This document shows positions 3,104 to 31,912 of a stretch of 32,000 nt of DNA, in pieces. Numbering within the stretch: position 1 is the first letter of the stretch; every line of letters begins with the position of its first letter. The position numbers were made by a program, and so were the translations under genes. Under the pieces are notes generated by a model. It worked only from the letters and a program-made list of their open reading frames with translations. It was not told where the DNA came from and made no database searches. This DNA comes from Microcystis aeruginosa NIES-843 (lineage in GTDB: Bacteria; Cyanobacteriota; Cyanobacteriia; Cyanobacteriales; Microcystaceae): assembly GCF_000010625.1 (NCBI RefSeq), contig NC_010296.1, positions 5,810,796-5,842,795 of the forward strand, read 5' to 3'.

Positions 3104-4054
3104 TCAGGAAAAACGCCCCAAGGCGACACCAATCAGGATAGTAACCCCGAAAAAGAGACGATACCAGACAAAAACCCAGGTACTCTGTTTTTTGAGATAA
3201 TCTAATAACCAAGCGATCGAAAGATAGGAAAATATCCCCGAGGAAATTACCCCAATACCCAGGGGAATTAATTCACTGGTGTTAATCTGGTCGAGAACGC
3301 CTTTAAATTCCACTAAACCGGCTAAAGTTATCGCCGGAATCCCCAACAGAAAGGAAAATCGCGCCGCTACGGCCCTTTCTAAACCCATGAATAACCCGGC
3401 AGTTAAGGTGGACCCAGAACGAGATACCCCCGGTATGAGGGCTAAAGCTTGGGCTAATCCCATTAAAACCCCGTCTTTTTGTCGCAAAGTCTCGAAACTG
3501 CGTTTATGTTTCCCGATTTTTTCGGCCGTACCTAAGAGTAAAGCCATGACTATGGAGGCACAGGCGATCGCTGTCATGCTTCTCAGGGGGGAATTATCTA
3601 AATCGGGAATGAAAAGTTTCATTAACAAACCGAAGAAAACGATCGGAATTGTGCCTAGGATAATCCCCACGGCTAAACGAAAATCCTGGGAACGATAATC
3701 GGAACTAGCCACCGCTTTCACCATTCCCGTGGATATTTGCCTTAAATCCTGCCAAAAATAGGACAATACCGCCGCAATACTGCCCAATTGAATCACTGCT
3801 GTATAGGTGACACCGGGATCTCCCCAACCCAAAAAGACGGGAATCGCTTTTAGATGAGCGGTACTGCTAATCGGCAAAAATTCCGTCACTCCCTGCACAA
3901 ATCCCAAAAAAATTGCCTGTAACCAGTTAATTTTTGCCAGAGGTATGGCGCTAGTGGTTGATTGGGCAATGACGGCGGGTGTAATCGCCAAAATTACCGT
4001 TATTATCGCTAGTCCTAGCCATTTATAGCTTTTTTTCAGTAAGGAAAACATCAT
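3104..4054 (-). CDS. uppP: Undecaprenyl-diphosphate phosphatase (BacA/UppP)
   Basis: 316-aa polytopic membrane ORF carrying the conserved UppP motifs EFLPISSTAHL and PGVSRSGSTL. Confidence 0.92.
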   Translation of the reverse strand: MMFSLLKKSYKWLGLAIITVILAITPAVIAQSTTSAIPLAKINWLQAIFLGFVQGVTEFLPISSTAHLKAIPVFLGWGDPGVTYTAVIQLGSIAAVLSYFWQDLRQISTGMVKAVASSDYRSQDFRLAVGIILGTIPIVFFGLLMKLFIPDLDNSPLRSMTAIACASIVMALLLGTAEKIGKHKRSFETLRQKDGVLMGLAQALALIPGVSRSGSTLTAGLFMGLERAVAARFSFLLGIPAITLAGLVEFKGVLDQINTSELIPLGIGVISSGIFSYLSIAWLLDYLKKQSTWVFVWYRLFFGVTILIGVALGRFS

Positions 4055-7038: not shown

Positions 7039-7151
7039 GAAGGTTCTTGTCATCCACTAATAGGTAGGTGAGAACACGAGGTAAACTATAAGCTGGGAGA
7101 TTGTGGTGAAAACTTAAGTAGTCGTGCAAAATTAATTTCCTAGTGAAGATA

Positions 7152-7179
7152 GGCAAGAGGCAAGAGGCAAGAGGCAAGA
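7152..7179. repeat. Tandem heptamer (GGCAAGA)x4
   Basis: Direct reading: ggcaaga ggcaaga ggcaaga ggcaaga gg, located 40 nt upstream of hicB. Confidence 0.9.
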
Positions 7180-7218
7180 GGTGGTTAGATATGTGTAATT
7201 AATTTTGCTTAGGTACTT

Positions 7219-12612: not shown

Positions 12613-12724
12613 AATCCCCCCTTGATCCCCCCTTAATCCCCCCTTGATAAGGGGGGTATCTGACAATTTTTAACACCCACCCACTTAATCACTGACAACT
12701 GATAACCGATAACTGATAACTGAA
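12613..12724. repeat. Composite low-complexity block: (TCCCCCCTTRA)x3 + GGGGGG hairpin partner, then CTGATAAC-type repeats
   Basis: aaatccccccttgatccccccttaatccccccttgataagggggg ... cactgacaactgataaccgataactgataactga. One hairpin arm is tandemly repeated and the other is single. Confidence 0.7.
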
Positions 12725-14161
12725 ATGACCTCTGACCCGTTCCTCGATCGAGCTTGGAATACCGAAGACCTAGAACAAGCGCTTCGAGGTGTCGGCACTA
12801 TTCAAGAAGAACTCAACTATAATCAGGCACGCAATTCTCTGAGCAAACTTGTCGATCGTCTGGATCTTACCTCGATCGAGAAAATTGGTCTAGAAGCGGA
12901 GATTGATCGCCTAGTGGCCCTGCTAGAAAAACTCGATCGATCCCTGATTCAAATTGCCGCTTTTGGCCTGGTGGGCCGGGGAAAATCCTCGATTTTAAAT
13001 GCTCTGGTCGGTCAAGAAATCTTTACAACCGGTCCTCTACACGGAGTTACCCGCACCATTAAAGGGGTAAATTGGCAGTTAAGCAGCGATGATACTTTCC
13101 CTCATCTAGCGCGTCTGACCCTGAACGGCCAGGGTAATGCTCAGGTGCAATTGCTTGATACTCCCGGTATTGATGAGGTAGATGGGCAAACGAGGGAAAT
13201 TCTCGCCTGTCAGGTGGCGCAGCAGGTGGATTTAATCCTTTTTATCATCTCTGGTGATATGACCAAAGTGGAATTTTCCGCCTTGGCCAAGTTACGCGAA
13301 GCAGGAAAACCGATGATTTTGGTCTTTAATAAAATCGATCAGTATCCGGAAGTCGATCGCCTCGCTATCTATGAAAAAATCGCCTCAGAACGGGTGAAAG
13401 AATTACTCTCCCCCGATGAGATTGTTATGGTGGCGGCCTCTCCCCTCCTGGCGGAGACGGTTAAAGGGCAGGATGGTCGGCTAAAAATGCAACGATTTTG
13501 CGGAAAACCACAGATAGAAGCCCTGAAACTCAAAATTTTGGAAATTCTAGAGCGAGAGGGTAAATCGCTGGTAGCACTCAATTCTATGCTGTATGCGGAC
13601 GAGGTAAACGAGCAAATTGTCGCCCGCAAAATGGCTATCCGTGATCGCGGGGCTAATCAATTGATTCAAAAAGCAGTGATGATCAAAGCATCGGCGATCG
13701 CTCTGAATCCGGTGACGGTGTTGGATCTGTTTACGGGGGCAGTTATCGATCTAGCCATGATTCTCGCTCTTTCTCGCTTATACGGCATCGATTTAACTCG
13801 TCAGGGGGCGATCGCTCTTTTACAAAAAATTGCCCTCAATATGGGTGGCATTAGTGCCAGCGAATTTTTAGCGGTTTTGGGTTTAAGTTCCCTAAAAGGA
13901 TTACTCGGTCTCTCGATTCCTGCCACTGGCGGCATTTCTCTCCTTCCCTATACTTCGATCGCCCTGACTCAAGCGGGGGTTGCCGGTGTATCCTGTTACG
14001 CGATCGGCCAAGTGACGAAAACCTATCTCGCTAATGGGGCCACCTGGGGACCCGATGGCCCGAAGGCAGTGGTGGCCAGCATTCTCGATTCCCTCGATGA
14101 AACCTCGATTCTCAACCGGATTAAGCGGGAATTAGGCTCAAAATTGGGGGTTGGGGGTTAG
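12725..14161 (+). CDS. GTP-binding protein with C-terminal DUF697-like membrane domain
   Basis: 478 aa. G1 GLVGRGKSS, G3 DTPGIDE, G4 NKID. The C-terminal ~170 aa are hydrophobic and Gly/Ala-rich, like the YcjF/DUF697 family. Confidence 0.8.
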   Translation: MTSDPFLDRAWNTEDLEQALRGVGTIQEELNYNQARNSLSKLVDRLDLTSIEKIGLEAEIDRLVALLEKLDRSLIQIAAFGLVGRGKSSILNALVGQEIFTTGPLHGVTRTIKGVNWQLSSDDTFPHLARLTLNGQGNAQVQLLDTPGIDEVDGQTREILACQVAQQVDLILFIISGDMTKVEFSALAKLREAGKPMILVFNKIDQYPEVDRLAIYEKIASERVKELLSPDEIVMVAASPLLAETVKGQDGRLKMQRFCGKPQIEALKLKILEILEREGKSLVALNSMLYADEVNEQIVARKMAIRDRGANQLIQKAVMIKASAIALNPVTVLDLFTGAVIDLAMILALSRLYGIDLTRQGAIALLQKIALNMGGISASEFLAVLGLSSLKGLLGLSIPATGGISLLPYTSIALTQAGVAGVSCYAIGQVTKTYLANGATWGPDGPKAVVASILDSLDETSILNRIKRELGSKLGVGG

Positions 14162-14303
14162 GGGAAGTGGGGAAGTGGGGAAGCGGGGAAATTGAACTAA
14201 AACCCCAAAACCCCAAAACCCCAACCTCCAACACCTAAAACCTGTCTCCTATCTCCTGACTCCTAACTCCTAACTCCTAACGGTTGATCACTGATCACTG
14301 ACT
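14161..14303. repeat. Composite intergenic microsatellite block (GGGGAAGT)n-(AAAACCCC)n-(CTCCTAA)n-(TGATCAC)n
   Basis: ggggaagtggggaagtggggaagcgggg aaattgaacta aaaccccaaaaccccaaaacccc ... tctcctatctcctgactcctaactcctaactcctaa cggttgatcactgatcactga. Four GGGG runs at 14161-14188. Confidence 0.85.
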
Positions 14304-16032: not shown

Positions 16033-16602
16033 ATGAAACTATCAGACTATGCAAAAAAAACAGGAATAAGTTATCGAACGGCTTGGAGGTGGTGGAAACA
16101 AGGGAATTTAACAGGTTATCAATTGCCTTCTGGTACAATTATCATAACGGATGACAACCATTCAAAACCCGACTTGATAGCCTGCATTTATGCAAGAGTT
16201 TCCAGTGCCGAAAATAAAGACAATCTAGATAGACAAGCTGACCGATTAAAAGATTATGCTGTTGCCAGAGGCTACAAAATCTACAAAGTTGTCAAAGAAG
16301 TAGGCAGTGGATTAAACGATAATCGCCAACAATTAGCCAAAATTCTAGTTGACCCCAATTATAATGTTTTAATTGTTGAACACAAAGACCGTCTAGCCAG
16401 ATTTGGGACTAATTATCTAGAAATCTTGTTAAAAGAACTAGATAAAAAAGTGGAGATTGTCAATCAAAGTGAGGATAATCAGGATGAGTTGATGTCAGAT
16501 TTAATAGCCATTATAACCTCTTTTTGTTCTCGAATTTACGGATTAAGAAGGTCGAAAAGAAAGACAGAAAAGATTATAGCTGAGTTAAAAGACAACGGAT
16601 AA
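16033..16602 (+). CDS. tnpA: IS607-family serine recombinase transposase TnpA
   Basis: 189 aa. MerR-like HTH (YAKKTGISYRTAWRWWKQG) followed by a resolvase catalytic domain with YARVSS nucleophile-Ser motif. Confidence 0.9.
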   Translation: MKLSDYAKKTGISYRTAWRWWKQGNLTGYQLPSGTIIITDDNHSKPDLIACIYARVSSAENKDNLDRQADRLKDYAVARGYKIYKVVKEVGSGLNDNRQQLAKILVDPNYNVLIVEHKDRLARFGTNYLEILLKELDKKVEIVNQSEDNQDELMSDLIAIITSFCSRIYGLRRSKRKTEKIIAELKDNG

Positions 16603-16604
16603 TA

Positions 16605-17828
16605 ATGTTAGTAGCAGAAAGACACATTATCAAGAAAGGACATAGATTTTGGGCTGAGATAGATAATTTATCTTGGCAGTCTAAAAATCTCTACAACTCA
16701 GCCAATTATTTAATCCGACAAAACTTCATTTATGGTCATGGCTATTTGACCTATAATCAGATGGCCTCTCTGAGGTCAAAGACAGAACAGTATCAAGCTT
16801 TACCCGCTAAAGTTTCCCAACAAGTTTTGAGAGGATTAGACAAAAACTGGCCATCATTTTTTGCCGCTTCATCGGAGTTTAAAAGTCACCCCGATAAATT
16901 TCTGGTCAAACCCAAAATCCCTAGCTATAAGGAGCCAAAAAAAGGACGAAATCTCTTAGTTTACACGATTCAATCCCTAAGCAAAGTAGGTCTTAGGCAA
17001 GGAATAGTCAAATTATCAGGTACTTCAATTGCCTTGCCGACGAGAGTAGCCGAGCGCATAGCAGAAGTCAGAATAGTTCCTAAATGTGATTGTTATGTAA
17101 TCGAGGTAATTTATGAGAAAACTGAACAGTTCTTAGCTCCTAATGAAAAGATAGCTGCGCTAGATTTAGGCATAGATAATTTGATGGCTGTAACTTCAAA
17201 TCAACCGGACTTTATCCCTTTGTTGATTAATGGCAGACCGTTAAAAAGCCTGAATCAATTTTATAACCAACGTCGGGCTAAGTTACAATCTCTGTTAAAA
17301 GGCAATCGTCAAAGTTCCCAGAGGATGCGCCGTTTGACTCGCTGTCGTAATCAGAAAGTAGATGATTATCTTCATCAGGCTAGTCGTTATTTAGTCAATC
17401 TCTTAGTTGACCAAGAGATAACAACTTTAGTAATTGGGAAAAATGACGGTTGGAAACAAGAAGTAAACTTAGGAAAAGTCAACAATCAAAAATTTGTGAC
17501 CATCCCTCATGCTCGATTAATTGAGATGATTAGTTATAAATGTCAATTAGAAGGAATCTCTGTGATTCTTCAAGAAGAATCCTATACCTCAGCTTCTAAT
17601 TTTTTGAATGACGATCCTCTCCCCGTTTATGGACAGATAACTGAAAAGCCAGTGTTTTCAGGAAACTGAATTTTACGAGGGTTATATCGTACAGATAAGG
17701 GGATTCTGGTTCAATCTGATGTCATGGGTTCCTACAATATTTTACGAAAAGCATTCCCAAATGCGTTTAACTGCTATGGGATAGAGAGGTGCGTAGTTCA
17801 CCCAAGGAGAATCAATCTCTCGAAGTAA
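16605..17828 (+). pseudogene. tnpB: IS607-associated tnpB interrupted by an in-frame TGA at 17667-17669
   Basis: The 354-aa ORF has RuvC-I AALDLGIDN and RuvC-II ILQEESYTS. After TGA the same frame continues for 52 codons (ILRGLYRTDKGILVQSDVMGSYNILRKAFPNAF...HPRRINLSK, stop 17826-17828) and contains the RuvC-III Asp motif. The stop codon therefore removes the third catalytic residue. Confidence 0.8.
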
Positions 17829-20334: not shown

Positions 20335-20434
20335 GTCAGTTATCAGTTAACAGCCTTTTTCTCCCTTCTCCCCACTCTCCTACTGCACTAAAGCGACGGA
20401 GAATGTCATACCTGAGCTTATTTTTTTAGACAAA

Positions 20435-20791
20435 TTACTGCATTTTTAGCATCCATTCTACTGTGCGTTCATACAGTTCTAAATTACCAGTTTTTATCAA
20501 AGCATTAGCGGCTTTTTGCAAAGAGTTAAGGCTCGCTACTCGGCTACTAGGATTTTTATCATCGTAGGTAGCAAGAGCCAAATTATAATAAGCTTCGCCA
20601 TAATTAGGCTGATAACTAATTGCTAATTGATAATCCGCAATCGCTTCTTTCTTCTCGCCCATTTTTTCCTTAACTAAACCTCGATTATAGTAAGCTTCAG
20701 CATAGTTAGACTGGAGAGAAATAGCCATATTTAAATCCTCCAAAGCACCAGTATTATCTCCCAAATCAAAGCGAATAACTCCTCTTTTTTC
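20435..20791 (-). pseudogene. TPR-repeat protein gene, 5'-truncated by the cassette array
   Basis: TPR consensus repeats (AEAYYNRGLVKEKMGEKKEAIADYQLAISYQPNYGEAYYNLA). There is no ATG: the ORF-track start is TTG at 20764. The frame stays open upstream (..RGVIRFDLGDNTGALEDL, itself mid-TPR) only until it enters cassette sequence at about 20785, with a stop at 20792-20794. Confidence 0.65.
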
Positions 20792-20800
20792 TCAAAACCC

Positions 20801-21133
20801 TTGACAAATGGCGAGACTTGCTTTAGACTTTATGTATAATGGGAATCCGTGCGCAAATATATATATAGTTTTTGAGCAAAGATAAGAGAGAAAAAAATAG
20901 CCTCAAAAATCGGGATGGGTAGGAATAGGGATATAAGGTATGAAGACTGAAATTTTCTCTCCCCGACAAGCATTAAACAAAGCATTCCTGAGTAGGGATA
21001 ATTCATGAATTATCCCTACGGAATTATCCCTACGGAATTATCCCTACGGAATTATCCCTACGGAATTATCCCTACGATAGGAATTGTTGTTACAGTGATT
21101 ATAAAATCGGCTCGATTTTTTTTCTAAAAACCC
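20801..21133 (+). repeat. Cassette 1 (333 bp; palindrome + 14-mer tract 20992-21075, 5 arm copies)
   Basis: TTGACA-N17-TAGACT, leader, ATGAAGACTGAAATT..., TGA, GTAGGGATAATTCatGAATTATCCCTAC + 4x GGAATTATCCCTAC, then aaaatcggctcgatttttttt. It has a 1-nt insertion between the two candidate ATGs relative to the other units. Confidence 0.9.
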
Positions 21134-21451
21134 TTGACAAATGGCGAGACTTGCTTTAGACTTTTTATATAATGGGAATCCGTGCGCAAATATATATAGG
21201 GTTTTTGAGGGAAGATAAGAGAGAAAAAAATAGACTCCAAAACCGGGATGGGTAGGAATAGGGATAAAGGTATGAAGACAGAAAATTTCTCTCCCCGACA
21301 AGCATTAAACAAAGCATTCCTGAGTAGGGATAATTCATGAATTATCCCTACGGAATTATCCCTACGGAATTATCCCTACGGAATTATCCCTACGATAGGA
21401 ATTGTTGTTACAGTGATTATAAAATCGGCTCGATTTTTTTTCTAAAAACCC
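21134..21451 (+). repeat. Cassette 2 (318 bp; palindrome + 14-mer tract 21324-21393, 4 arm copies)
   Basis: Same organisation. Variant leader ...gggtttttgagggaagataag... is shared only with cassette 3. Confidence 0.9.
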
Positions 21452-21740
21452 TTGACAAATGGCGAGACTTGCTTTAGACTTTTTATATAATGGGAATCCG
21501 TGCGCAAATATATATAGGGTTTTTGAGGGAAGATAAGAGAGAAAAAAATAGACTCCAAAACCGGGATGGGTAGGAATAGGGATAAAGGTATGAAGACAGA
21601 AAATTTCTCTCCCCGACAAGCATTAAACAAAGCATTCCTGAGTAGGGATAATTCATGAATTATCCCTACGGAATTATCCCTACGGAATTATCCCTACGGA
21701 ATTATCCCTACGATAGGAATTGTTGTTACAGTGATTATAA
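21452..21740 (+). repeat. Cassette 3, tail interrupted by RAYT insertion (palindrome + 14-mer tract 21642-21711, 4 arm copies)
   Basis: Identical by eye to cassette 2 up to ...gtgattataaa. There the expected atcggctc is replaced by ~770 bp, and cassette-type sequence resumes at gattttctcaaaaccc (~22512). Confidence 0.85.
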
Positions 21741-22313
21741 ATCCTTTCTACCGAAGCTTTGCCAAAACTGAACTTCCTCCTGACTAGGTTTGACTTGCTG
21801 ATTTTCGATATCTTGATGCCATTTTAAAGGATTATTAACAATATATTCTCTAATTTTCGTTAAGGAAACCTCATCACGGATAATATGTTCATAATAATTC
21901 TTTTGCCAAACCGATTGACCTTGAGTACTCTGCAATTGATTAATCAGTTTAGCACTATTCATTTTAAAATAACCAACCACTTTAGGTAACAACATTTTTC
22001 GCCTTTCCTCTGGTAGAGATAATTCATGAATTATCTCTAATGGGTTATCAATAAATATTATTCCGTGAATATGATTAGGCATAATCACAAATTCATCTAA
22101 AATAACTTCTTTATAACGAGTATCTAAACTATGCCAAATATCCTTAACAACTTGACCAAATTGATTAAGATTCATGACGTTATCTTGTATGTCCCCTAAT
22201 AAATTTTCACTATTTTTAATACAGATTGTCACAAAATATGCAGCCGATTGAGAATAATCATAGTGAGATAATCTTAAGGAACGACGATGGGGTTTATCAG
22301 AAAAGTTATTCAT
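21735..22313 (-). CDS. REP-associated tyrosine transposase-like protein (RAYT / TnpA_REP, HUH-Y1 superfamily)
   Basis: 192 aa. HUH motif MPNHIHGIIFI and catalytic Tyr context WQKNYYEHIIRDE. N-terminal RRSLRLSHYDYSQSAAYFVTICIKN is typical of COG1943/RAYT proteins. The last sense codon and the stop lie in cassette sequence. Confidence 0.8.
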   Translation of the reverse strand: MNNFSDKPHRRSLRLSHYDYSQSAAYFVTICIKNSENLLGDIQDNVMNLNQFGQVVKDIWHSLDTRYKEVILDEFVIMPNHIHGIIFIDNPLEIIHELSLPEERRKMLLPKVVGYFKMNSAKLINQLQSTQGQSVWQKNYYEHIIRDEVSLTKIREYIVNNPLKWHQDIENQQVKPSQEEVQFWQSFGRKDL

Positions 22314-22527
22314 TTATTCATCTCCTTGTCAGGACAATAAATAGGAATCTCATTTTAGTTTTTGGCTATTTAGTAAAATAAGATTAAGCTGAATATAACA
22401 ATAATTGTAACTGCTCGGTCTCGCGTAGCGAGCGCGTTGCGACCGCTTCCTTTAACCTTTCTACCCCTGCAAACTTACTGGCAATTTCCCTCACATCTTG
22501 GGAAGTGGGGAGATTTTCTCAAAACCC

Positions 22528-22873
22528 TTGACAAATGGCGAGACTTGCTTTAGACTTTTTATATAATGGGAATCCGTGCGCAAATATATATATAGTTTTT
22601 GAGCAAAGATAAGAGAGAAAAAAATAGACTCCAAAACCGGGATGGGTAGGAATAGGGATAAAGGGATGAAGACGGAAAATTTCTCTCCCCGACAAGCATT
22701 AAACAAAGCATTCCTGAGTAGGGATAATTCATGAATTATCCCTACGGAATTATCCCTACGGAATTATCCCTACGGAATTATCCCTACGGAATTATCCCTA
22801 CGGAATTATCCCTACGATCTGAATTGTTGTTACGGTGATTATAAAATCGGCTCGATTTTTTTTCTAAAAACCC
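22528..22873 (+). repeat. Cassette 4 (346 bp; palindrome + 14-mer tract 22718-22815, 6 arm copies)
   Basis: Same organisation. Tail variant gatctgaattgttgttacggtg is shared with cassette 5. Confidence 0.9.
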
Positions 22874-23233
22874 TTGACAAATGGCGAGACTTGCTTTAGA
22901 CTTTTTATATAATGGGAATCCGTGCGCAAATATATATATAGTTTTTGAGCAAAGATAAGAGAGAAAAAAATAGACTCCAAAACCGGGATGGGTAGGAATA
23001 GGGATAAAGGTATGAAGACAGAAAATTTCTCTCCCCGACAAGCATTAAACAAAGCATTCCTGAGTAGGGATAATTCATGAATTATCCCTACGGAATTATC
23101 CCTACGGAATTATCCCTACGGAATTATCCCTACGGAATTATCCCTACGGAATTATCCCTACGGAATTATCCCTACGATCTGAATTGTTGTTACGGTGATT
23201 ATAAAATCGGCTCGATTTTTTTTCTCAAAACCC
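22874..23233 (+). repeat. Cassette 5 (360 bp; palindrome + 14-mer tract 23064-23175, 7 arm copies)
   Basis: Same organisation, with the largest 14-mer copy number. Confidence 0.9.
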
Positions 23234-23273
23234 TTGACAAATGGCGAGACTTGCTTTAGACTTTTTATATAAT
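23234..23273 (+). promoter_or_regulatory. Cassette 6 promoter, the one physically attached to the R-M gene: TTGACA-N17-TAGACT plus TATAAT 5 nt further
   Basis: TTGACA 23234-23239, 17-nt spacer, TAGACT 23257-23262, TATAAT 23268-23273. The same hexamers and spacing are conserved in all six cassettes. In the diverged copy at 27300 the -10 is TATACT. Confidence 0.6.
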
Positions 23274-23347
23274 GGGAATCCGTGCGCAAATATATATATA
23301 GTTTTTGAGCAAAGATAAGAGAGAAAAAAATAGACTCCAAAATCGGG

Positions 23348-26300
23348 ATGGGTAGGAATAGGGATAAAGGTATGAAGACAGAAAATTTCTCTCCCCGACA
23401 AGCATTAAACAAAGCATTCCTGAGAGTCAAACCGAATCGTAGTCAGGTGGAGAAGTTTCAAACCCACCTAGAACAACTTTTGGGGAGTATAAACGAGACA
23501 GAATCGGAGGAGTTCCACAAAAACCTGCTTGCAGACTTTCTCAAACACAGCTACTATAGTCCCCAACATTTCATCAACACCAAGGGAAGGAATGATTTAG
23601 TCATCCATAATGGGAAAGAGTCGCGGGATTCCGTGGGGGTAATATTGGAAGTCAAGAAACCCAGCAATAAAAGCGAGATGCTGCGGAGAGACAAACTCAA
23701 CTGTAAAGCATTACAAGAATTACTCCTCTACTTCCTTCGGGAAAGAATAACCGAGAAAAACCTAGAGATAAAACACCTGATTGCTACCAATATATATGAG
23801 TGGTTTATCTTCGATGGGAATATCTTCGAGAGACTATTCGCACAAAATCAGGAACTTGTCAGACAGTTTAATGACTTTGAGACGGGGAGACTAACGGGAA
23901 AAACCACCGACTTCTTCTACAAACAGATAGGGGAACCCTTCCTTAACTCCATACTCAATTCCCTGACATACACCTATTTTGACTTGCGGGAATACACCCA
24001 AACCATCCGGGAGGACGAACATAACCTCATCAGTCTCTATAAAATCTTTTCTCCCGAACACCTGTTAAAACTCCCCTTTGCGAACGATAGCAACAGTCTC
24101 GACAAAAACTTTTATAGTGAACTGCTGCATATCATCGGATTGACAGAGATAAAAGAGGGAGGAAAAAAACTCATCCAACGTCTGCAACCGGCAGCGCGAC
24201 AACCCGGTTCGCTGCTAGAGAACGCTATCAGTCAAGTAGAGAGTTTAGATAAAATCTCTCGTTTACCCAATCCCGAGGAATTTGGGGAGACGGAGGAGGA
24301 GAGACTATTGAATATCGGTTTAGAGTTAGGGATAACCTGGATAAATAGAATCCTCTTCCTCAAACTATTAGAAGCGCAGATAATTAGGTATCATCGGGGG
24401 GATAAATCCCTAGGGTTTCTCAATTTAGGCAAAATTGCCAACTATGACGACTTAAATCGCTTATTTTTCAGCGTCTTAGCAAAAAAACAGTCAGAAAGAA
24501 GCAAAGACATCCAGAATACCCATACTCAGGTTCCCTATCTCAACAGTTCCCTATTTGAACCGACGGAATTAGAACAATCAACCATAGTTATCAGTAACCT
24601 GTGTTCGGAGAATATAGAGATTTTTGCAGGAACAGTCTTAAAGGATAGTCAGGGGAAAAAGCGAACAGGAGAAATCAACGCTCTAGCATACCTATTCGAG
24701 TTTCTCAATGCCTACGATTTTAGCAGCGAAGGTGGGGAAGCGATACAGGAGGATAACAAGACTCTTATCAATGCGTCGGTGTTGGGATTAATCTTCGAGA
24801 AAATCAACGGATATAAGGATGGTTCCTTTTTCACCCCCGGTTTCATCACTATGTATATGTGTCGGGAAACGATTCGACGCGCAGTGATAGAGAAATTTAA
24901 CCAGAGTCAGGGATGGGATTGTCAGACAATCGAGGATGTATATAACCGCATCAAAGATAAAACGGCAGCCAATGCTATTATCAATAGTCTCAAAATTTGT
25001 GATCCTGCGGTGGGTTCGGGACATTTTCTTGTTTCTGCTTTGAACGAGATAATCGCAATTAAGAGTGAGTTACAGATTTTAGTGGATAAAGAGGGGAAAA
25101 CTCTCAGGGATTATCGGGTTGAGGTGGTGAACGATGAGTTAATCGTCACCGATGATGACGGTAATCTGTTTGAGTATAATCCCCGCAACCGAGAAAGTCA
25201 GCGAGTACAGGAGACTTTATTTCAGGAAAAACAGCGTCTGATTGAGGGGTGTCTCTTTGGAGTCGATATCAATCCCAACTCGGTGAAAATCTGTCGGTTG
25301 CGTTTATGGATTGAGTTACTCAAGAATGCTTACTACAAAGCAGATAACGAGTTAGAGACGCTACCGAATATCGATATTAATATCAAGGTTGGCAATTCTC
25401 TGATTAGTCGCTTTGGGTTATCCAATGATTTACAAGTCTTTTCCCGCAAAAATCGTTTAAGTATCGAGAGTTATAAGGATGCGGTGAGAGTCTATCGCAA
25501 CGCGGAGGATAAATCGCAAAAGCGCGAGATGGAGAGATTGATAAGTGAGATTAAGAGTAGTTTTCGTCAGACTTTACAGGGAGATAATCCTCTGAAAAAG
25601 CGCTTGCGGGGTTTGGAAACGGATTTATATAGTCTAGAGAATCAAATTTTGTTATTTGAGGAGTCACCCAAGGAAAAGAAAGCGCGGGAAAGGAAGATTA
25701 GTCAGTTAAGGAATGAGATTGATAAGTTACGTCCGCAACTAGAGGAGATTGAAAGCGGTAAGATTTATCATAATGCTTTTGAATGGCGCTTCGAGTTCCC
25801 CGAAGTTCTAGACGATAAGGGGAATTTTATCGGTTTTGATGTGGTAATTGGCAATCCTCCTTATATTCAATTATCTAAAATAGACTCAACAACAGTTAAA
25901 TACAAGAATTATTTACTAATGCGTTATGAAACATCTGGCGGCAGATTAAATACATTTATTTTTTTCACTCATTTATCATTTCAAATACTAAAACAAAACG
26001 GAATTTTAAGTTATATCATTCCAAACACTATATTAACTCAAGAATATTATGTATTTACACGTCAATTCTTACTCAATAAAGTAACGCTATCAGAGGTTAT
26101 CAATTTTCTGAATTTACCGTTTGAAGACGCAGTAGTAGAAACAGTGATTATTCAATATTTGAAATCACAAAATTTAGATTATGCTGTGAATTATGGTGAG
26201 CTTGCTGAAAGTGGATTTAATTTCAAATTTAATATAAGTTCATCCGAAATAAGAAGCAATATCGGCTATTCATTTTTAGTTCAGCGTAATTCTATTTTGC

Positions 26301-26962
26301 TTAAAGTTTTTGAATCTAAAAATTGTCCGCTTGACGAAATTTGTAATATTAATCAAGCAATAGCCTTGAAGGGAGATAAATCACTATCTTTAAAAACACA
26401 AAACCCTGAAGGGAAATATAAAAAACTTCTTGATGGAAGAAATATAAATAAATACTCAATTAGCTGGGATGGTTTTTATTTAGATTATGATATTACCAAG
26501 ATTCATAGTTGTAAACGCAGAGACATTTTTGAAACAAAAGAAAAACTTTTATTTAGAAGAGTTTCGAGAACGTTAATTTTTACCTACGACAATTCTCAAT
26601 ATTATGCTCTTAATACATTGGTAGTTGTAAATCTAAAAAAAGGGATTAACTTTGATATAAAGTTTCTTCTTGGAATAATGAATTCTTCATTAATGAATTA
26701 TATTTATAACAACAAATTTAAATCAACTAAAACAGTTTTCTCTGAAATTCAAACTCGTTCTATTTCACAGCTTCCAATACCCAAAATTAGTCAAGAACAA
26801 CAGCAACCTATAATTGTACTTGTAGATCAAATTCTCACGGCTAAAAAATCTAATCCCAAAGCTGACACCAGCGAGTTAGAAAAAGAGATTGACAAAATAG
26901 TGTATGAATTGTATGGATTAAGCGAGGAGGAAATCAGGATAATAGAGGGGGAAATAAAATAA
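23348..26962 (+). CDS. Type IIG (Eco57I/MmeI-like) restriction-modification enzyme: N-terminal PD-(D/E)xK-like nuclease, gamma-class N6-adenine methyltransferase, C-terminal target-recognition domain
   Basis: 1204-aa ORF. SAM motif I DPAVGSGHFLV, catalytic motif IV VIGNPPYI (NPPY codons 25853-25864), coiled-coil insertion before NPPY, N-terminal NDLVIHNG...VILEVKKP resembling D...ExK, and a TaqI-like C-terminal specificity region. The true start may be ATG 23372 (MKTENFSPRQ), because cassette 1 has a frameshifting 1-nt insertion between the two ATGs. Confidence 0.88.
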   Translation: MGRNRDKGMKTENFSPRQALNKAFLRVKPNRSQVEKFQTHLEQLLGSINETESEEFHKNLLADFLKHSYYSPQHFINTKGRNDLVIHNGKESRDSVGVILEVKKPSNKSEMLRRDKLNCKALQELLLYFLRERITEKNLEIKHLIATNIYEWFIFDGNIFERLFAQNQELVRQFNDFETGRLTGKTTDFFYKQIGEPFLNSILNSLTYTYFDLREYTQTIREDEHNLISLYKIFSPEHLLKLPFANDSNSLDKNFYSELLHIIGLTEIKEGGKKLIQRLQPAARQPGSLLENAISQVESLDKISRLPNPEEFGETEEERLLNIGLELGITWINRILFLKLLEAQIIRYHRGDKSLGFLNLGKIANYDDLNRLFFSVLAKKQSERSKDIQNTHTQVPYLNSSLFEPTELEQSTIVISNLCSENIEIFAGTVLKDSQGKKRTGEINALAYLFEFLNAYDFSSEGGEAIQEDNKTLINASVLGLIFEKINGYKDGSFFTPGFITMYMCRETIRRAVIEKFNQSQGWDCQTIEDVYNRIKDKTAANAIINSLKICDPAVGSGHFLVSALNEIIAIKSELQILVDKEGKTLRDYRVEVVNDELIVTDDDGNLFEYNPRNRESQRVQETLFQEKQRLIEGCLFGVDINPNSVKICRLRLWIELLKNAYYKADNELETLPNIDINIKVGNSLISRFGLSNDLQVFSRKNRLSIESYKDAVRVYRNAEDKSQKREMERLISEIKSSFRQTLQGDNPLKKRLRGLETDLYSLENQILLFEESPKEKKARERKISQLRNEIDKLRPQLEEIESGKIYHNAFEWRFEFPEVLDDKGNFIGFDVVIGNPPYIQLSKIDSTTVKYKNYLLMRYETSGGRLNTFIFFTHLSFQILKQNGILSYIIPNTILTQEYYVFTRQFLLNKVTLSEVINFLNLPFEDAVVETVIIQYLKSQNLDYAVNYGELAESGFNFKFNISSSEIRSNIGYSFLVQRNSILLKVFESKNCPLDEICNINQAIALKGDKSLSLKTQNPEGKYKKLLDGRNINKYSISWDGFYLDYDITKIHSCKRRDIFETKEKLLFRRVSRTLIFTYDNSQYYALNTLVVVNLKKGINFDIKFLLGIMNSSLMNYIYNNKFKSTKTVFSEIQTRSISQLPIPKISQEQQQPIIVLVDQILTAKKSNPKADTSELEKEIDKIVYELYGLSEEEIRIIEGEIK

Positions 26963-27048: not shown

Positions 27049-27299
27049 AAATTTAATACATTTGTTCTAATGAACTCCCAATCGAACTTTAAAACCCATC
27101 TCCGCGCTTCCCCTATACCTTCCTCTTACCTATTGCAAGAGTGCCTTATCTCAACAAGTAATTTAAATTCAGTACAGCTTACACCCAAAAGAATCTCATA
27201 CCAAATTTCTAAATCCATGACAGACATCCACGCTCGAATGCTTGCCAAGCCGGTGTTCGTTGTGACGCGAATAAAGAAAAATGGTGTCAACCAAAATGC

Positions 27300-27400
27300 T
27301 TGACAAAAGCCAAGACTTGACTTATACTTTTTATATAATGGGAATCCGTGCCTAAATATATATAGGTGTTTTCAGAGAAATTAACGAGCGAAAGAAATAG
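27300..27400 (+). promoter_or_regulatory. Diverged seventh copy of the cassette promoter and leader start
   Basis: TTGACAaaagccaagacttgactTATACTttttaTATAATgggaatccgtgcctaaatatatag... aligns with cassette TTGACAaatggcgagacttgcttTAGACTttttaTATAATgggaatccgtgcgcaaatatatatag.... Both hexamers and the 17-nt spacing are kept. Similarity fades after about 27400. Confidence 0.6.
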
Positions 27401-27487: not shown

Positions 27488-27895
27488 TTACGACGGCTTT
27501 TCCTGATTTTTGATGTAGCACTTAAGAACTTCCAGTGGCGCACCTCCTACAGAAGATACAAAATAACTGGGCGACCAAAGAGCGTCTTTCCCGTATGGCT
27601 TAGGATATCCAGCTTGTCCATACCTACGACTAGAGACTCCTTTTAAAGAATTGACCATTACAGAAATAGATAGTTTCGGCGGGTATTCAATCAATGCGTG
27701 TACATGATCGGACTCCCCGTTAAATTCCAATATCTGAAAATTCATCTTTTCCGCAACTTCCCTAAAAGACTTTTCAATCAAAGTCAGACTTTTACCAGTA
27801 AAAACCTTACTTCTGTATTTTGTCACACAGACCAAGTGTATCTTTAGATCGGAAACAGAGTTTCTTTCTTTTCGCAACTGACTTGACATTATCAA
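27488..27895 (-). CDS. tnpA: IS200/IS605-family Y1 (HUH) transposase TnpA
   Basis: 135 aa. HUH motif DHVHALIEY and catalytic Tyr context WSPSYFVSSVGG. Confidence 0.9.
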   Translation of the reverse strand: MIMSSQLRKERNSVSDLKIHLVCVTKYRSKVFTGKSLTLIEKSFREVAEKMNFQILEFNGESDHVHALIEYPPKLSISVMVNSLKGVSSRRYGQAGYPKPYGKDALWSPSYFVSSVGGAPLEVLKCYIKNQEKPS

Positions 27896-27939
27896 CAGAC
27901 CTAGTTAGAATAGACTACAGACACACACATCTTAACCCA

Positions 27940-29184
27940 ATGAAAGCGAGGTATCAATACCGTATTTACCCAACAGACCAACAAAAGAGGCTTTTGTCTC
28001 AGTTGTTCGGGTGTGTGCGTGTTGTCTGGAACGATACCTTAGCTTACTGTCAAGAACTTTATCGACAAGGGGAGAAAAAGCCAAAATATACAGAGTTATC
28101 TAAAAGACTAACTCAAGTCAAAAAAACAGAAGAAAGACGGTGGTTAACCGAGGTCTCTTCTATTCCTTTACAACAGTCTTTGAGAGACTTAGAGACTGCT
28201 TACTCTAACTTCTTTACATCTTGTAAGGGCGAGAGAAAAGGAAAGAAAGTCAAACCTCCCAAGTTTAAAAAACGTAAATCTAAACAATCAGCAAGATTTA
28301 CCGACAATGGTTTTACCGTTAACCAACACTGCGTTACTTTAGCAAAAATCGGTGATTTAAGAATCGTTTGGAGTCGTCCATTACCTTCTAAACCTTCTAG
28401 TGTCACCGTGATTAAAGATGCAGCAGATCGCTATTTTCTTAGTTTTGTCGTCGAGGTTCAGCCCGAAATACTTCCTAATAACGGGGAGTCCGTGGGAATC
28501 GATCTAGGGATTGCTACCTTTGCTACCCTCTCAACAGGGGAAAAGATAGACGCACCGAAACCGTTAAAGAAACGATTAAAACGACTAAGAAAAGCACAGA
28601 AAAACCTTTCTAGAAAACAGAAAGGAAGTAACCGACGGGAAAAAGCTAGGAAACGAGTAGCTAAAATCCATGCAAAGATTAAAGACACTCGCACTGATTT
28701 CTTGCATAAACTATCCACTAGAGTTGTTCGTGAAAATCAAACGATAATTTTAGAGGATTTAAACACATCGGGAATGGTTAAAAATCGTAAGTTATCCCGT
28801 GCCATATCAGACTTAGGATGGCGTTCTTTCCGAGATATGCTATCGGCAAAATCTGATAAATATGGGCGTGATTTTCGGATAATTTCCCGATGGGAGCCAA
28901 CGTCTCAAAGGTGTTCCTGTTGTGGGAATATCGGCGGGAAAAAAGCGTTAAATATCCGTGAGTGGGAATGTCTTTTCTGTGGGACTTTTCATGATAGGGA
29001 TGTAAACGCTGCAATTAATATCAAGGTCGCCGGTGGGCAATCGGAGACCTCAAAAAACGGACGTGGAGGAAAGTGTAAGACTACCGATAAGGTAGCAGCA
29101 TCCTGTGAAGCGTCAACCCAGCGGTCGGTCGTTCAATTAAGTTTGTTTGATCTGCCGGGAATCACCGTCCGGCCCCGGCGGTGA
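27940..29184 (+). CDS. tnpB: RNA-guided endonuclease TnpB
   Basis: Starts MKARYQYRIYPT at ATG 27940; the ORF-track start at 27820 overlaps tnpA. RuvC-I SVGIDLGIATF, RuvC-II IILEDLNTSG, zinc finger CSCCGN...CLFCGT, RuvC-III DRDVNAAINI. Confidence 0.9.
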   Translation: MKARYQYRIYPTDQQKRLLSQLFGCVRVVWNDTLAYCQELYRQGEKKPKYTELSKRLTQVKKTEERRWLTEVSSIPLQQSLRDLETAYSNFFTSCKGERKGKKVKPPKFKKRKSKQSARFTDNGFTVNQHCVTLAKIGDLRIVWSRPLPSKPSSVTVIKDAADRYFLSFVVEVQPEILPNNGESVGIDLGIATFATLSTGEKIDAPKPLKKRLKRLRKAQKNLSRKQKGSNRREKARKRVAKIHAKIKDTRTDFLHKLSTRVVRENQTIILEDLNTSGMVKNRKLSRAISDLGWRSFRDMLSAKSDKYGRDFRIISRWEPTSQRCSCCGNIGGKKALNIREWECLFCGTFHDRDVNAAINIKVAGGQSETSKNGRGGKCKTTDKVAASCEASTQRSVVQLSLFDLPGITVRPRR

Positions 29185-31775: not shown

Positions 31776-31912
31776 AGGGAAGTGGGGTGTGGGAAGTGGG
31801 GTGTGGGGAAGTGGGGAGGTGGGGAAGTGGGGAAGTGGGGAGGTGGGGAAGTGGGGGAATTTCAACTAAAACCCTAAAACCCTAAAACCCCAACCCCTCA
31901 CTGATTACTGAT
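31776..31912. repeat. Composite intergenic microsatellite block (GGGGAAGT/GGGGTGT/GGGGAGGT)n-(AAAACCCT)n-CTGATTACTGATG
   Basis: gggaagtggggtgtgggaagtggggtgtggggaagtggggaggtggggaagtggggaagtggggaggtggggaagtggggg aatttcaacta aaaccctaaaaccctaaaacccc ... ctgattactgatg. More than ten GGGG runs. Confidence 0.85.

Follow-up and report, generated by a model that had tools for sequence, protein, structure and literature searches.

Why does a restriction-modification (R-M) gene of Microcystis aeruginosa NIES-843 carry its own promoter six times over? Microcystis is a bloom-forming cyanobacterium with heavy R-M loads, and the gene in question lies in a 32,000-nt stretch of contig NC_010296.1 (positions 5,810,796 to 5,842,795; hereafter the window, to whose first nucleotide all positions below refer unless a comparative locus, designated L001 and so on, is named). 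A first-pass annotation had described six tandem cassettes of promoter, leader and 5' coding sequence at 20785-23424, the last of which alone continues into a gene for a Type IIG enzyme, and had proposed that the other five are decoys, stacked promoters or by-products of amplification driven by an HUH transposase and its repetitive extragenic palindromic (REP) sequences. The last of these options is supported by our analysis. With a probability of roughly 0.75, the array is an ordered REP cluster of a REP-associated tyrosine transposase (RAYT) of TnpA_REP subclass 2.4, in which the promoter and first 17 codons of the R-M gene have been copied in tandem, and not a dedicated R-M control system. 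This reading rests on a subclass 2.4 RAYT embedded in the array, on its double-foot REP and on published RAYT-adjacent clusters of the same kind.

The array consists of six direct copies, on the plus strand, of a segment of about 207 bp that comprises promoter, leader and gene start and is here named D. Each begins with the promoter TTGACA-N17-TAGACT (10 of 12 consensus positions matched in every copy) and continues through a purine-rich leader into ATGAAGAC...GCATTCCTGAG. The -35 hexamers start at 20801, 21134, 21452, 22528, 22874 and 23234, and the D copies are spaced, start to start, by 333, 318, 1076, 346 and 360 bp, with TRF reporting periods of 318 and 360 (scores 1695 and 1674). Copies 1-5 each lead into a second segment, X, made up in this order of a 28-nt palindrome, a run of 14-mers, a tail of about 30 nt and a weak hairpin with a T run (the hairpin is missing from the third unit), while copy 6 alone runs on into an intact open reading frame (ORF) that ends at 26962. 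Since the five D+X units match at 95-96 %, the locus presents nearly identical REP units in tandem together with their flanking DNA, which is what defines an ordered cluster. The perfect palindrome GTAGGGATAATTCATGAATTATCCCTAC occurs at 20992, 21324, 21642, 22718 and 23064, and is followed by 4, 3, 3, 5 and 6 exact units of the 14-mer GGAATTATCCCTAC, respectively. When up to two mismatches are tolerated, the window contains 32 occurrences of the 14-mer, compared with 0.34 expected by chance; all 32 lie within the array, and this search found no copy elsewhere in the window. Leader variants group copies 2/3 against 1/4/5/6 and tail variants 1/2/3 against 4/5, and the six D copies can be told apart at diagnostic sites. 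On all these points (promoter positions, the four short unit lengths, palindromes with three to six 14-mers, variant groupings), the first-pass annotation was accurate; the unit that it had left as interrupted measures 1076 bp.

From left to right, D1 (20785-20992) adjoins the flank of a TPR gene and holds, after its leader, an ATG at 20940 with 17 codons plus 2 nt, its last G being common with the REP of X1 (20992-21117; REP 20992-21019, four 14-mers 21020-21075, tail, hairpin and T run from 21103). D2 (21118-21324; mini-ORF ATG at 21272) leads into X2 (21324-21435; REP 21324-21351, three 14-mers 21352-21393, tail, hairpin and T run from 21421), and D3 (21436-21642; ATG 21590) into X3 (21642-21742; REP 21642-21669, three 14-mers 21670-21711, tail), which is joined to the RAYT segment. 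On the other side of that segment, D4 (22514-22718; ATG 22666) is followed by X4 (22718-22857; REP 22718-22745, five 14-mers 22746-22815, tail, hairpin and T run from 22843), D5 (22858-23064; ATG 23012) by X5 (23064-23217; REP 23064-23091, six 14-mers 23092-23175, tail, hairpin and T run from 23203), and the array closes with D6 (23218-23424), the sole copy continuous with the R-M gene. Minus-strand ORFs of 85-90 aa that span these units (21044-21301, 21362-21619, 22784-23041 and 23158-23430) are reading-frame artefacts of the repeat.

The apparent interruption of cassette 3 is a 771-bp segment (21743-22513) that carries an intact RAYT gene on the minus strand (21735-22313, 192 aa) and its upstream spacer (22314-22513). 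By its motifs, the encoded protein is a predicted RAYT of TnpA_REP subclass 2.4, that is, Bertels group 4. Its translation contains the HuH motif PNHIHG, followed by WQKNYYEHIIRD...YIVNNP, and with PNHIHG, VWQKNYYEHIIRD and REYIVNNP it displays the complete signature NH[IFV]H / WQ / YIxNNP given for subclass 2.4 or RAYT group 4 (Table 1 of Quentin et al. 2018, PMC6006769), a subclass with a mean length of 194 aa that is abundant in cyanobacteria (PMC6006769). The protein matches Pfam Y1_Tnp with 31.1 bits (cut-off 23), and its W-Q-x4-E-H-x2-R has the spacing of the residues W94, Q95, E100, H101 and R104 by which E. coli TnpA_REP recognises GTAG (quoted in PMC6006769). Furthermore, a variant of the REP (22013-22039) lies in frame within the gene, between HuH and Y, where it encodes ..LEIIHELSL..; such an in-frame REP is a published hallmark of subclass 2.4 (PMC6006769) and was likewise found in L013 and L061. 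GTAG...CTAC palindromes flank the gene about 65 nt past the stop codon (21642-21669) and about 405 nt before the start codon (22718-22745), so that REPs with a GT[AG]G foot, of the double-foot type, occur within +/-1000 nt of it. A PDB sequence search with the protein returned no matches. Because the D3 promoter faces the 3' end of the RAYT gene, transcription from it would be convergent with, and antisense to, that gene. The spacer includes a GC-rich short repeat of about 45 nt (22414-22459; ctcggtctcgcgtagcgagcgcgttgcgaccg...) that recurs at L003 8969-9014 and 10157-10188 and appears to be a separate short dispersed repeat in Microcystis.

With GTAG at its 5' end and CTAC at its 3' end, the 28-nt palindrome has the feet of the double-foot type (GT[AG]G at 5', the complement at 3'), which has been assigned to subclass 2.4 (PMC6006769), and by this likeness it is the predicted cognate REP of the RAYT. 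Either of its strands, as single-stranded DNA (ssDNA), forms a hairpin of 12 bp with a dG near -10 kcal/mol (-10.2; z about -5). Adding a single base to the palindrome's right arm gives the 14-mer, and the runs of 14-mers are therefore tandem half-REPs. The weak hairpin, aaaatcg-gct-cgatttt with its T run, was indeed found after cassettes 1, 2, 4 and 5, but the weak terminator that the first-pass annotation had seen in it did not hold up: a scan of 20400-23700 returned no terminator-like site, and the hairpin with T8 fails the standard rule and folds as ssDNA with only -4.3 kcal/mol.

The gene reached by D6 (23372-26962, plus strand) encodes, on one intact polypeptide, DUF7149 and DUF7814 (whose sources give type II restriction endonuclease), an Eco57I methylase domain and TaqI_C, and is by this domain content a predicted Type IIG-like fused endonuclease-methyltransferase; enzymes of this class combine a nuclease region, a gamma-class N6-adenine methylase and a target-recognition domain in one chain. 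The mechanical ORF start at 23348 (1204 aa) had been adopted as the start of the gene, giving 25 codons per cassette; this had to be revised, since homologues from cyanobacteria, Bacteroidota and others, covering many phyla, all begin with M-x(4-8)-PR(K/Q)ALNKAFL(K/R)VKPNR. Judged by these N-termini, the true start is almost certainly ATG 23372 (1196 aa), and each D holds 17 codons plus 2 nt of the gene. Gene calls of 1252-1254 aa for the enzyme in L002, L003 and L005, about 50 aa beyond the 1204-aa mechanical ORF, presumably begin upstream of the true ATG. The end of D falls within the conserved N-terminal motif, at AFL|RVK, and D is therefore a genuine piece of the R-M gene, not a foreign module fused onto it. 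In cassettes 1-5, the match to the gene ends after TTCCTGAG, equivalent to 23424, and the frame then reads S-R-D-N-S-stop, as noted before; this end is REP sequence read in frame. Each resulting mini-ORF has 22 codons (MKTENFSPRQALNKAFLSRDNS and stop), the lower figure of the 22-30 codons proposed earlier. As the repeats lie upstream of an intact copy of promoter and ORF, they are unable to alter the R-M reading frame. Between the TPR gene and the R-M gene, no helix-turn-helix (HTH) ORF was found, and nothing there indicates C-protein or phase-variable control.

The architecture recurs in other Microcystis genomes. Comparative loci were drawn from a search for the identical RAYT, a scan for the REP, relatives of the R-M gene and a metagenome search for dimers of the 14-mer; identical copies of the RAYT protein are recorded in 226 blocks of the assembly collection. 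At every unit of all Microcystis loci analysed, D meets X at the same junction, CTGAG|TAGGG, which points to one founding event. The number of D copies per locus varies from two to six and that of 14-mers from zero to nine. The 771-bp RAYT segment always stands in place of the hairpin within one unit, which thereby becomes the 1076-bp long unit, and in L008 two such long units stand in tandem. Substitutions specific to a strain recur among its D copies in a mosaic fashion, a sign of concerted evolution. What adjoins the first D on its left varies with context: a TPR gene, a gene of 482 aa with a native hairpin and T run, or remnants of the RAYT spacer. The pair of R-M gene and RAYT is flanked on the left by TPR/ABC genes or the 482-aa gene and on the right by CIA30 or DUF433/DUF5615, with all four combinations represented. 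Except for L007, every locus with the identical RAYT has the R-M gene and/or the same TPR/ABC flank; at the unrelated site of L007, D-X-RAYT-D and 37-40 nt of the R-M gene occur without the enzyme gene.

Of particular value is L132, where a diverged allele of the R-M gene (3230-3560; 87 % aa identity over the N-terminal region) lies beside a Cu-oxidase_4 gene. Its D-like promoter and leader are present once, with a hairpin-like T run ahead of them, and there is neither REP nor RAYT. This allele is the un-amplified state of the locus. The array fragment of L007 sits in the same neighbourhood as L132 (Cu-oxidase_4, formyltransferase, cNMP-binding). Among 12 metagenome stretches with two adjacent 14-mers, D adjoins the palindrome in all 12, and X was not seen apart from D in the Microcystis data searched (these stretches, the window and the identical-RAYT loci). 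The first-pass annotation had considered that the unit might turn out to be a generic dispersed MITE (miniature inverted-repeat transposable element) unrelated to R-M genes, and these data do not bear this out.

Outside Microcystis, a scan of the genome collection with the 20-nt core of the REP as query gave at least 120 loci in cyanobacteria, Bacteroidota, Balneola, Chloroflexota, bacteria of the candidate phyla radiation (CPR) and Nitrospirota. Among the matches listed, most are the verbatim 28-mer in intergenic DNA, and two lie inside RAYT genes (L013 and L061 mentioned above). Dispersed copies of the same REP occur in a Bacteroidetes metagenome-assembled genome (MAG) and, in large numbers, in Symploca, Tolypothrix and Floridaenema, and a Chloroflexota MAG (L127) carries the identical REP in a tandem of three 216-bp units. 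In Microcystis, array copies alone were recovered (among the matches listed and in the 12 metagenome stretches). As a side observation, the same REP also lies in frame within long ORFs in Anabaena catenula (L057, position 1923) and in L027, L029 and L100; one of these ORFs, with 552 aa and the end ...GWSLNPGRYV, resembles an N6-adenine DNA methyltransferase, and on this resemblance insertion of REPs into R-M-type genes may recur. A second family of palindromes shares the 16-nt centre GGATAATTCATGAATTATCC and has other outer arms, TAGCCCGGATAATTCATGAATTATCCGGGCTAG; it was found in MAGs of Gammaproteobacteria and Desulfobacterota (L015, L022, L023, L032, L035, L053, L068, L072, L074 and others).

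How might such a cluster arise? The native upstream region of the R-M gene comprises a weak hairpin with T run, a sigma-70-type promoter, a leader of about 110 nt and the first 17 codons, and is present once in the diverged allele. In the founding event, the GTAG foot of a double-foot REP would have been joined to CCTGAG within codons 17-18 of the R-M gene (gene-side junction site CATTCCTGAG|AGTC), and the segment from promoter to codon 17, i.e., D, would have been duplicated at the same time, which would have left an intact R-M gene downstream. As the context CTGAG|TAGGG of the REP foot also occurs in a Floridaenema copy (L099), the site in the R-M gene may have been a pseudo-site or have offered microhomology. 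Afterwards, D+REP units have expanded, contracted and been homogenised as short units of about 320-360 bp and a long RAYT unit of 1076 bp. We infer that unequal recombination or replication slippage between direct repeats of 207-360 bp alters the number of units and homogenises the copies, while the 14-nt half-REPs would slip separately from them, and that nicking by the RAYT at REP hairpins plausibly stimulates these changes. The enzyme would be expressed from the last cassette (D6) only, with D1-D5 as by-products that probably still fire, giving short transcripts that end in or after the REP hairpin, some read-through into the R-M gene and RNA antisense to the RAYT gene, the last of these starting at D3. 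Several more specific models of the founding event were considered, namely REP-to-REP duplication, Campbell-type integration of an X-D circle, IS608-like insertion 3' of the element's own end and a long target-site duplication, and none of them fits all junctions. An origin of the X tail of about 30 nt as native upstream DNA was also rejected, since in an alignment with REP-free contexts the shared part is limited to the hairpin and T run plus, perhaps, some 8 nt ahead of it. Readings as an integron, CRISPR array, retron or element of the diversity-generating retroelement (DGR) type were discarded as well, since there is no integrase, Cas or reverse transcriptase gene and the repeats are not separated by spacers, and so was a dispersed MITE or non-autonomous IS200-IS605-type element, given that D stands beside the palindrome in all 12 metagenome stretches and the window copies are bound to the array.

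Several observations weigh against a RAYT-driven REP cluster. In L002 (AP019314.1, a single contig of 5.87 Mb), D is duplicated once more, together with 81 nt of the R-M gene and with no REP at the junction, and duplications thus occur at this locus without one. The RAYT gene is split by insertions in L137 (about 136 bp at ~2184-2319, with an apparent 8-bp duplication), L140 (about 400 bp) and L141 (about 1.3 kb, 859-2143), and the arrays persist there; together with the duplication in L002, this argues that the arrays can be maintained in the absence of RAYT activity. In no context does a REP precede the leftmost D, so that the founding event is not reconstructable as a simple REP-to-REP duplication; three different left sequences abut the same point, |TTTTCT(C/A)AAAACCC. 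The match of the RAYT to the NCBIfam model REP_Tyr_transpos speaks for the assignment by its E-value (9.8e-17), but its 61.2 bits fall short of the model's equivalog cut-off of 80. Dispersed copies of the REP in Microcystis were not seen among the matches listed, and the population is unusually small for a REP/RAYT system. Finally, all internal D promoters examined (39 of 39 copies) keep TTGACA-17-TA(G/T)ACT, which fits young, homogenised copies but also selection for function.

The first two of these points would equally suit a passive minisatellite, formed by ordinary tandem duplication through homologous recombination and slippage, with REP and RAYT as non-catalytic bystanders at the first junction, and concerted evolution is a product that recombination of the RecA type would yield. 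We nevertheless consider this rather unlikely, as all units in all strains have their junction precisely at the REP's GTAG foot, the cluster sits at a RAYT gene like the published RAYT-adjacent ordered clusters, and this REP is also arrayed in tandem outside the phylum (L127).

The conserved promoters lead to another explanation, namely that the array is a selected regulatory device in which cassettes tune R-M dosage via promoters stacked behind leaky terminators or via decoy transcripts or 22-aa peptides that would titrate a factor binding the leader or the ribosome-binding region, with copy number as a heritable rheostat. In addition to the 39 intact copies, the -35 hexamer is invariant over 47 distinct D sequences, there is no strong terminator between cassettes and copy number varies by strain. 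However, against 70 variable columns out of 207 in D, the invariance of the six columns has a probability of about 0.08 and is not significant; it would be accounted for by gene conversion with the functional copy as donor, and the intact internal promoters are statistically inseparable from homogenisation. Rfam found no family in the whole window, hence no known riboswitch, leader or small RNA, and the transcript of a whole cassette is not unusually structured (z = -0.9), with the REP hairpin alone being robust. Moreover, the SRDNS tail of the mini-ORF is merely in-frame REP, the diverged allele of L132 works with one promoter, and like arrays with unrelated flanking DNA exist in other organisms (L127; PMC3116915). 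A selected device of this kind thus seems improbable to us; promoter stacking and decoy RNAs may arise as side-effects of the array, but the data do not call for either. It is true, as had been remarked, that no R-M control system with such an architecture has been described, but the array is better filed as a REP cluster.

A scenario that combines both views is quite improbable as well: a replicative RAYT reaction of a kind not yet described would have joined the REP to the pseudo-cleavage site CCTGAG|AG, which is similar to the context of the REP foot, with a target duplication of about 210-230 bp. The live promoters would then have been kept because a Type IIG enzyme may be toxic to its own cell, the variable stack acting on it as rheostat or decoy, and one cassette would in addition exert antisense control over the RAYT gene.

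That RAYT, REPs and R-M gene transpose as one composite element, with the D copies as its ends or by-products, could be suspected from the differing left and right flanks of the RAYT/R-M pair and from the fragment at the unrelated site of L007. Yet, the R-M gene is not followed downstream by a REP or any other defined end, the four flank combinations look like shuffling of islands and not like transposition, L007 is devoid of the R-M gene itself, and RAYTs as a class are reported to be typically single-copy (PMC5581495), which makes a composite element highly improbable.

An array mis-joined or over-expanded by the assembler would be suggested by contigs ending inside it in short-read assemblies (L001, L009-L011) and by an N run within the 14-mers of L004, but it is practically dismissed by the distinguishable window copies and by the same layout, with non-identical units and other copy numbers, in independent assemblies including AP019314.1 and several metagenomes. 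What these breaks do imply is that copy numbers in drafts are uncertain, because short-read assemblies break or collapse at the array.

Viewed as a REP cluster, the locus draws on known families throughout: its RAYT belongs to subclass 2.4, its REP is of the double-foot type and also present inside the RAYT gene, and its tandem cluster is ordered and takes in flanking DNA. Ordered REP/REPIN clusters, i.e., tandem REPs with flanking DNA, often beside a RAYT gene, have been described before (Bertels & Rainey 2011, PMC3116915; Di Nocera et al. 2013, PMC3733652), three of them adjoining RAYT genes (PMC3116915), and they share with the Microcystis array the nearly identical head-to-tail units at a RAYT gene and the GTAG foot. 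It is unusual in comparison with them that the flank repeated here comprises the complete promoter and 5' untranslated region (UTR) of the R-M gene next door along with 17 of its codons, that one unit contains the RAYT gene itself and can be duplicated together with it (L008), and that each REP is followed by a microsatellite of half-REPs. Unlike other REP families with their tens to hundreds of dispersed copies, the Microcystis REP appears, among the matches listed, to be confined to this single locus. The agreement with subclass 2.4 extends to motifs, the length of about 194 aa, the double-foot REP, the in-frame REP between HuH and Y and the cyanobacterial host; PMC6006769 does not describe copies of a neighbouring gene's promoter and 5' coding sequence in tandem. 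With the E. coli bacterial interspersed mosaic elements (BIMEs) and TnpA_REP (4ER8), the Microcystis system has in common an HUH/Y1 nuclease with GTAG-tagged hairpins, higher-order arrays and the spacing of the GTAG-recognition residues, whereas the E. coli enzyme falls into subclass 2.2, the palindromes of its REPs are imperfect and bulged, and BIME arrays contain no promoter or coding-sequence copies. Phase-variable or C-protein R-M systems resemble the locus in the repeat-rich 5' end of an R-M gene and in strain-variable copy number. In contrast to them, the Microcystis repeats lie outside the functional ORF, without a controller ORF or C-box, and, compared with phase-variable systems, the unit measures hundreds of bp and not 1-7 bp.

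For the formation of REP clusters and the cellular role of RAYTs, this locus is an unusually legible case. Its apparently tiny, single-site REP population, base-precise junction, long and short units, copy-number variants and REP-free as well as RAYT-disrupted alleles make it a good natural test system for duplication at REP feet by a subclass 2.4 RAYT. By setting as many as five additional consensus promoters before the R-M gene and one against the RAYT gene, the array could affect restriction levels. On the practical side, the array breaks short-read assemblies and inflates ORF calls, as with the 1252-1254-aa versions of the enzyme and the spurious ORFs of 85-90 aa.

Downstream of the R-M gene, a D-like paralogue (27293-27400, plus strand) is 80 % identical to positions 8-114 of D, i.e., to the promoter and the first ~100 nt of the leader. 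In other genomes, this sequence is the upstream region of the CIA30 gene, about 90 nt before it where no insertion sequence (IS) intervenes (e.g., L003 1152-1260). Direct repeats of a single promoter module thus stand on both sides of the R-M gene, a hint that this locus underwent a duplication or an insertion earlier; the downstream copy would be older than the D copies of the array. Between the R-M and CIA30 genes, the window holds an IS200/IS605-type element (27488-29184) with a Y1 TnpA (27488-27895, minus strand) and a TnpB/OrfB (27820-29184, plus strand). It was rejected as a source of the REPs, being a separate insertion that is missing at that spot in L003, L004, L006 and L008.

Further away, at 16033-17669, a serine-resolvase ORF (189 aa) is directly followed by an OrfB_IS605/TnpB-like ORF (354 aa), an arrangement that is also present in L002; a serine resolvase paired with a TnpB-like gene is typical of IS607-family elements. 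Short tandem repeats with units of 7-14 nt occur in intergenic DNA at 7151-7181, 12614-12723, 14161-14281 and 31777-31890, for example, ten units of GGGAAGTG at 31777-31856.

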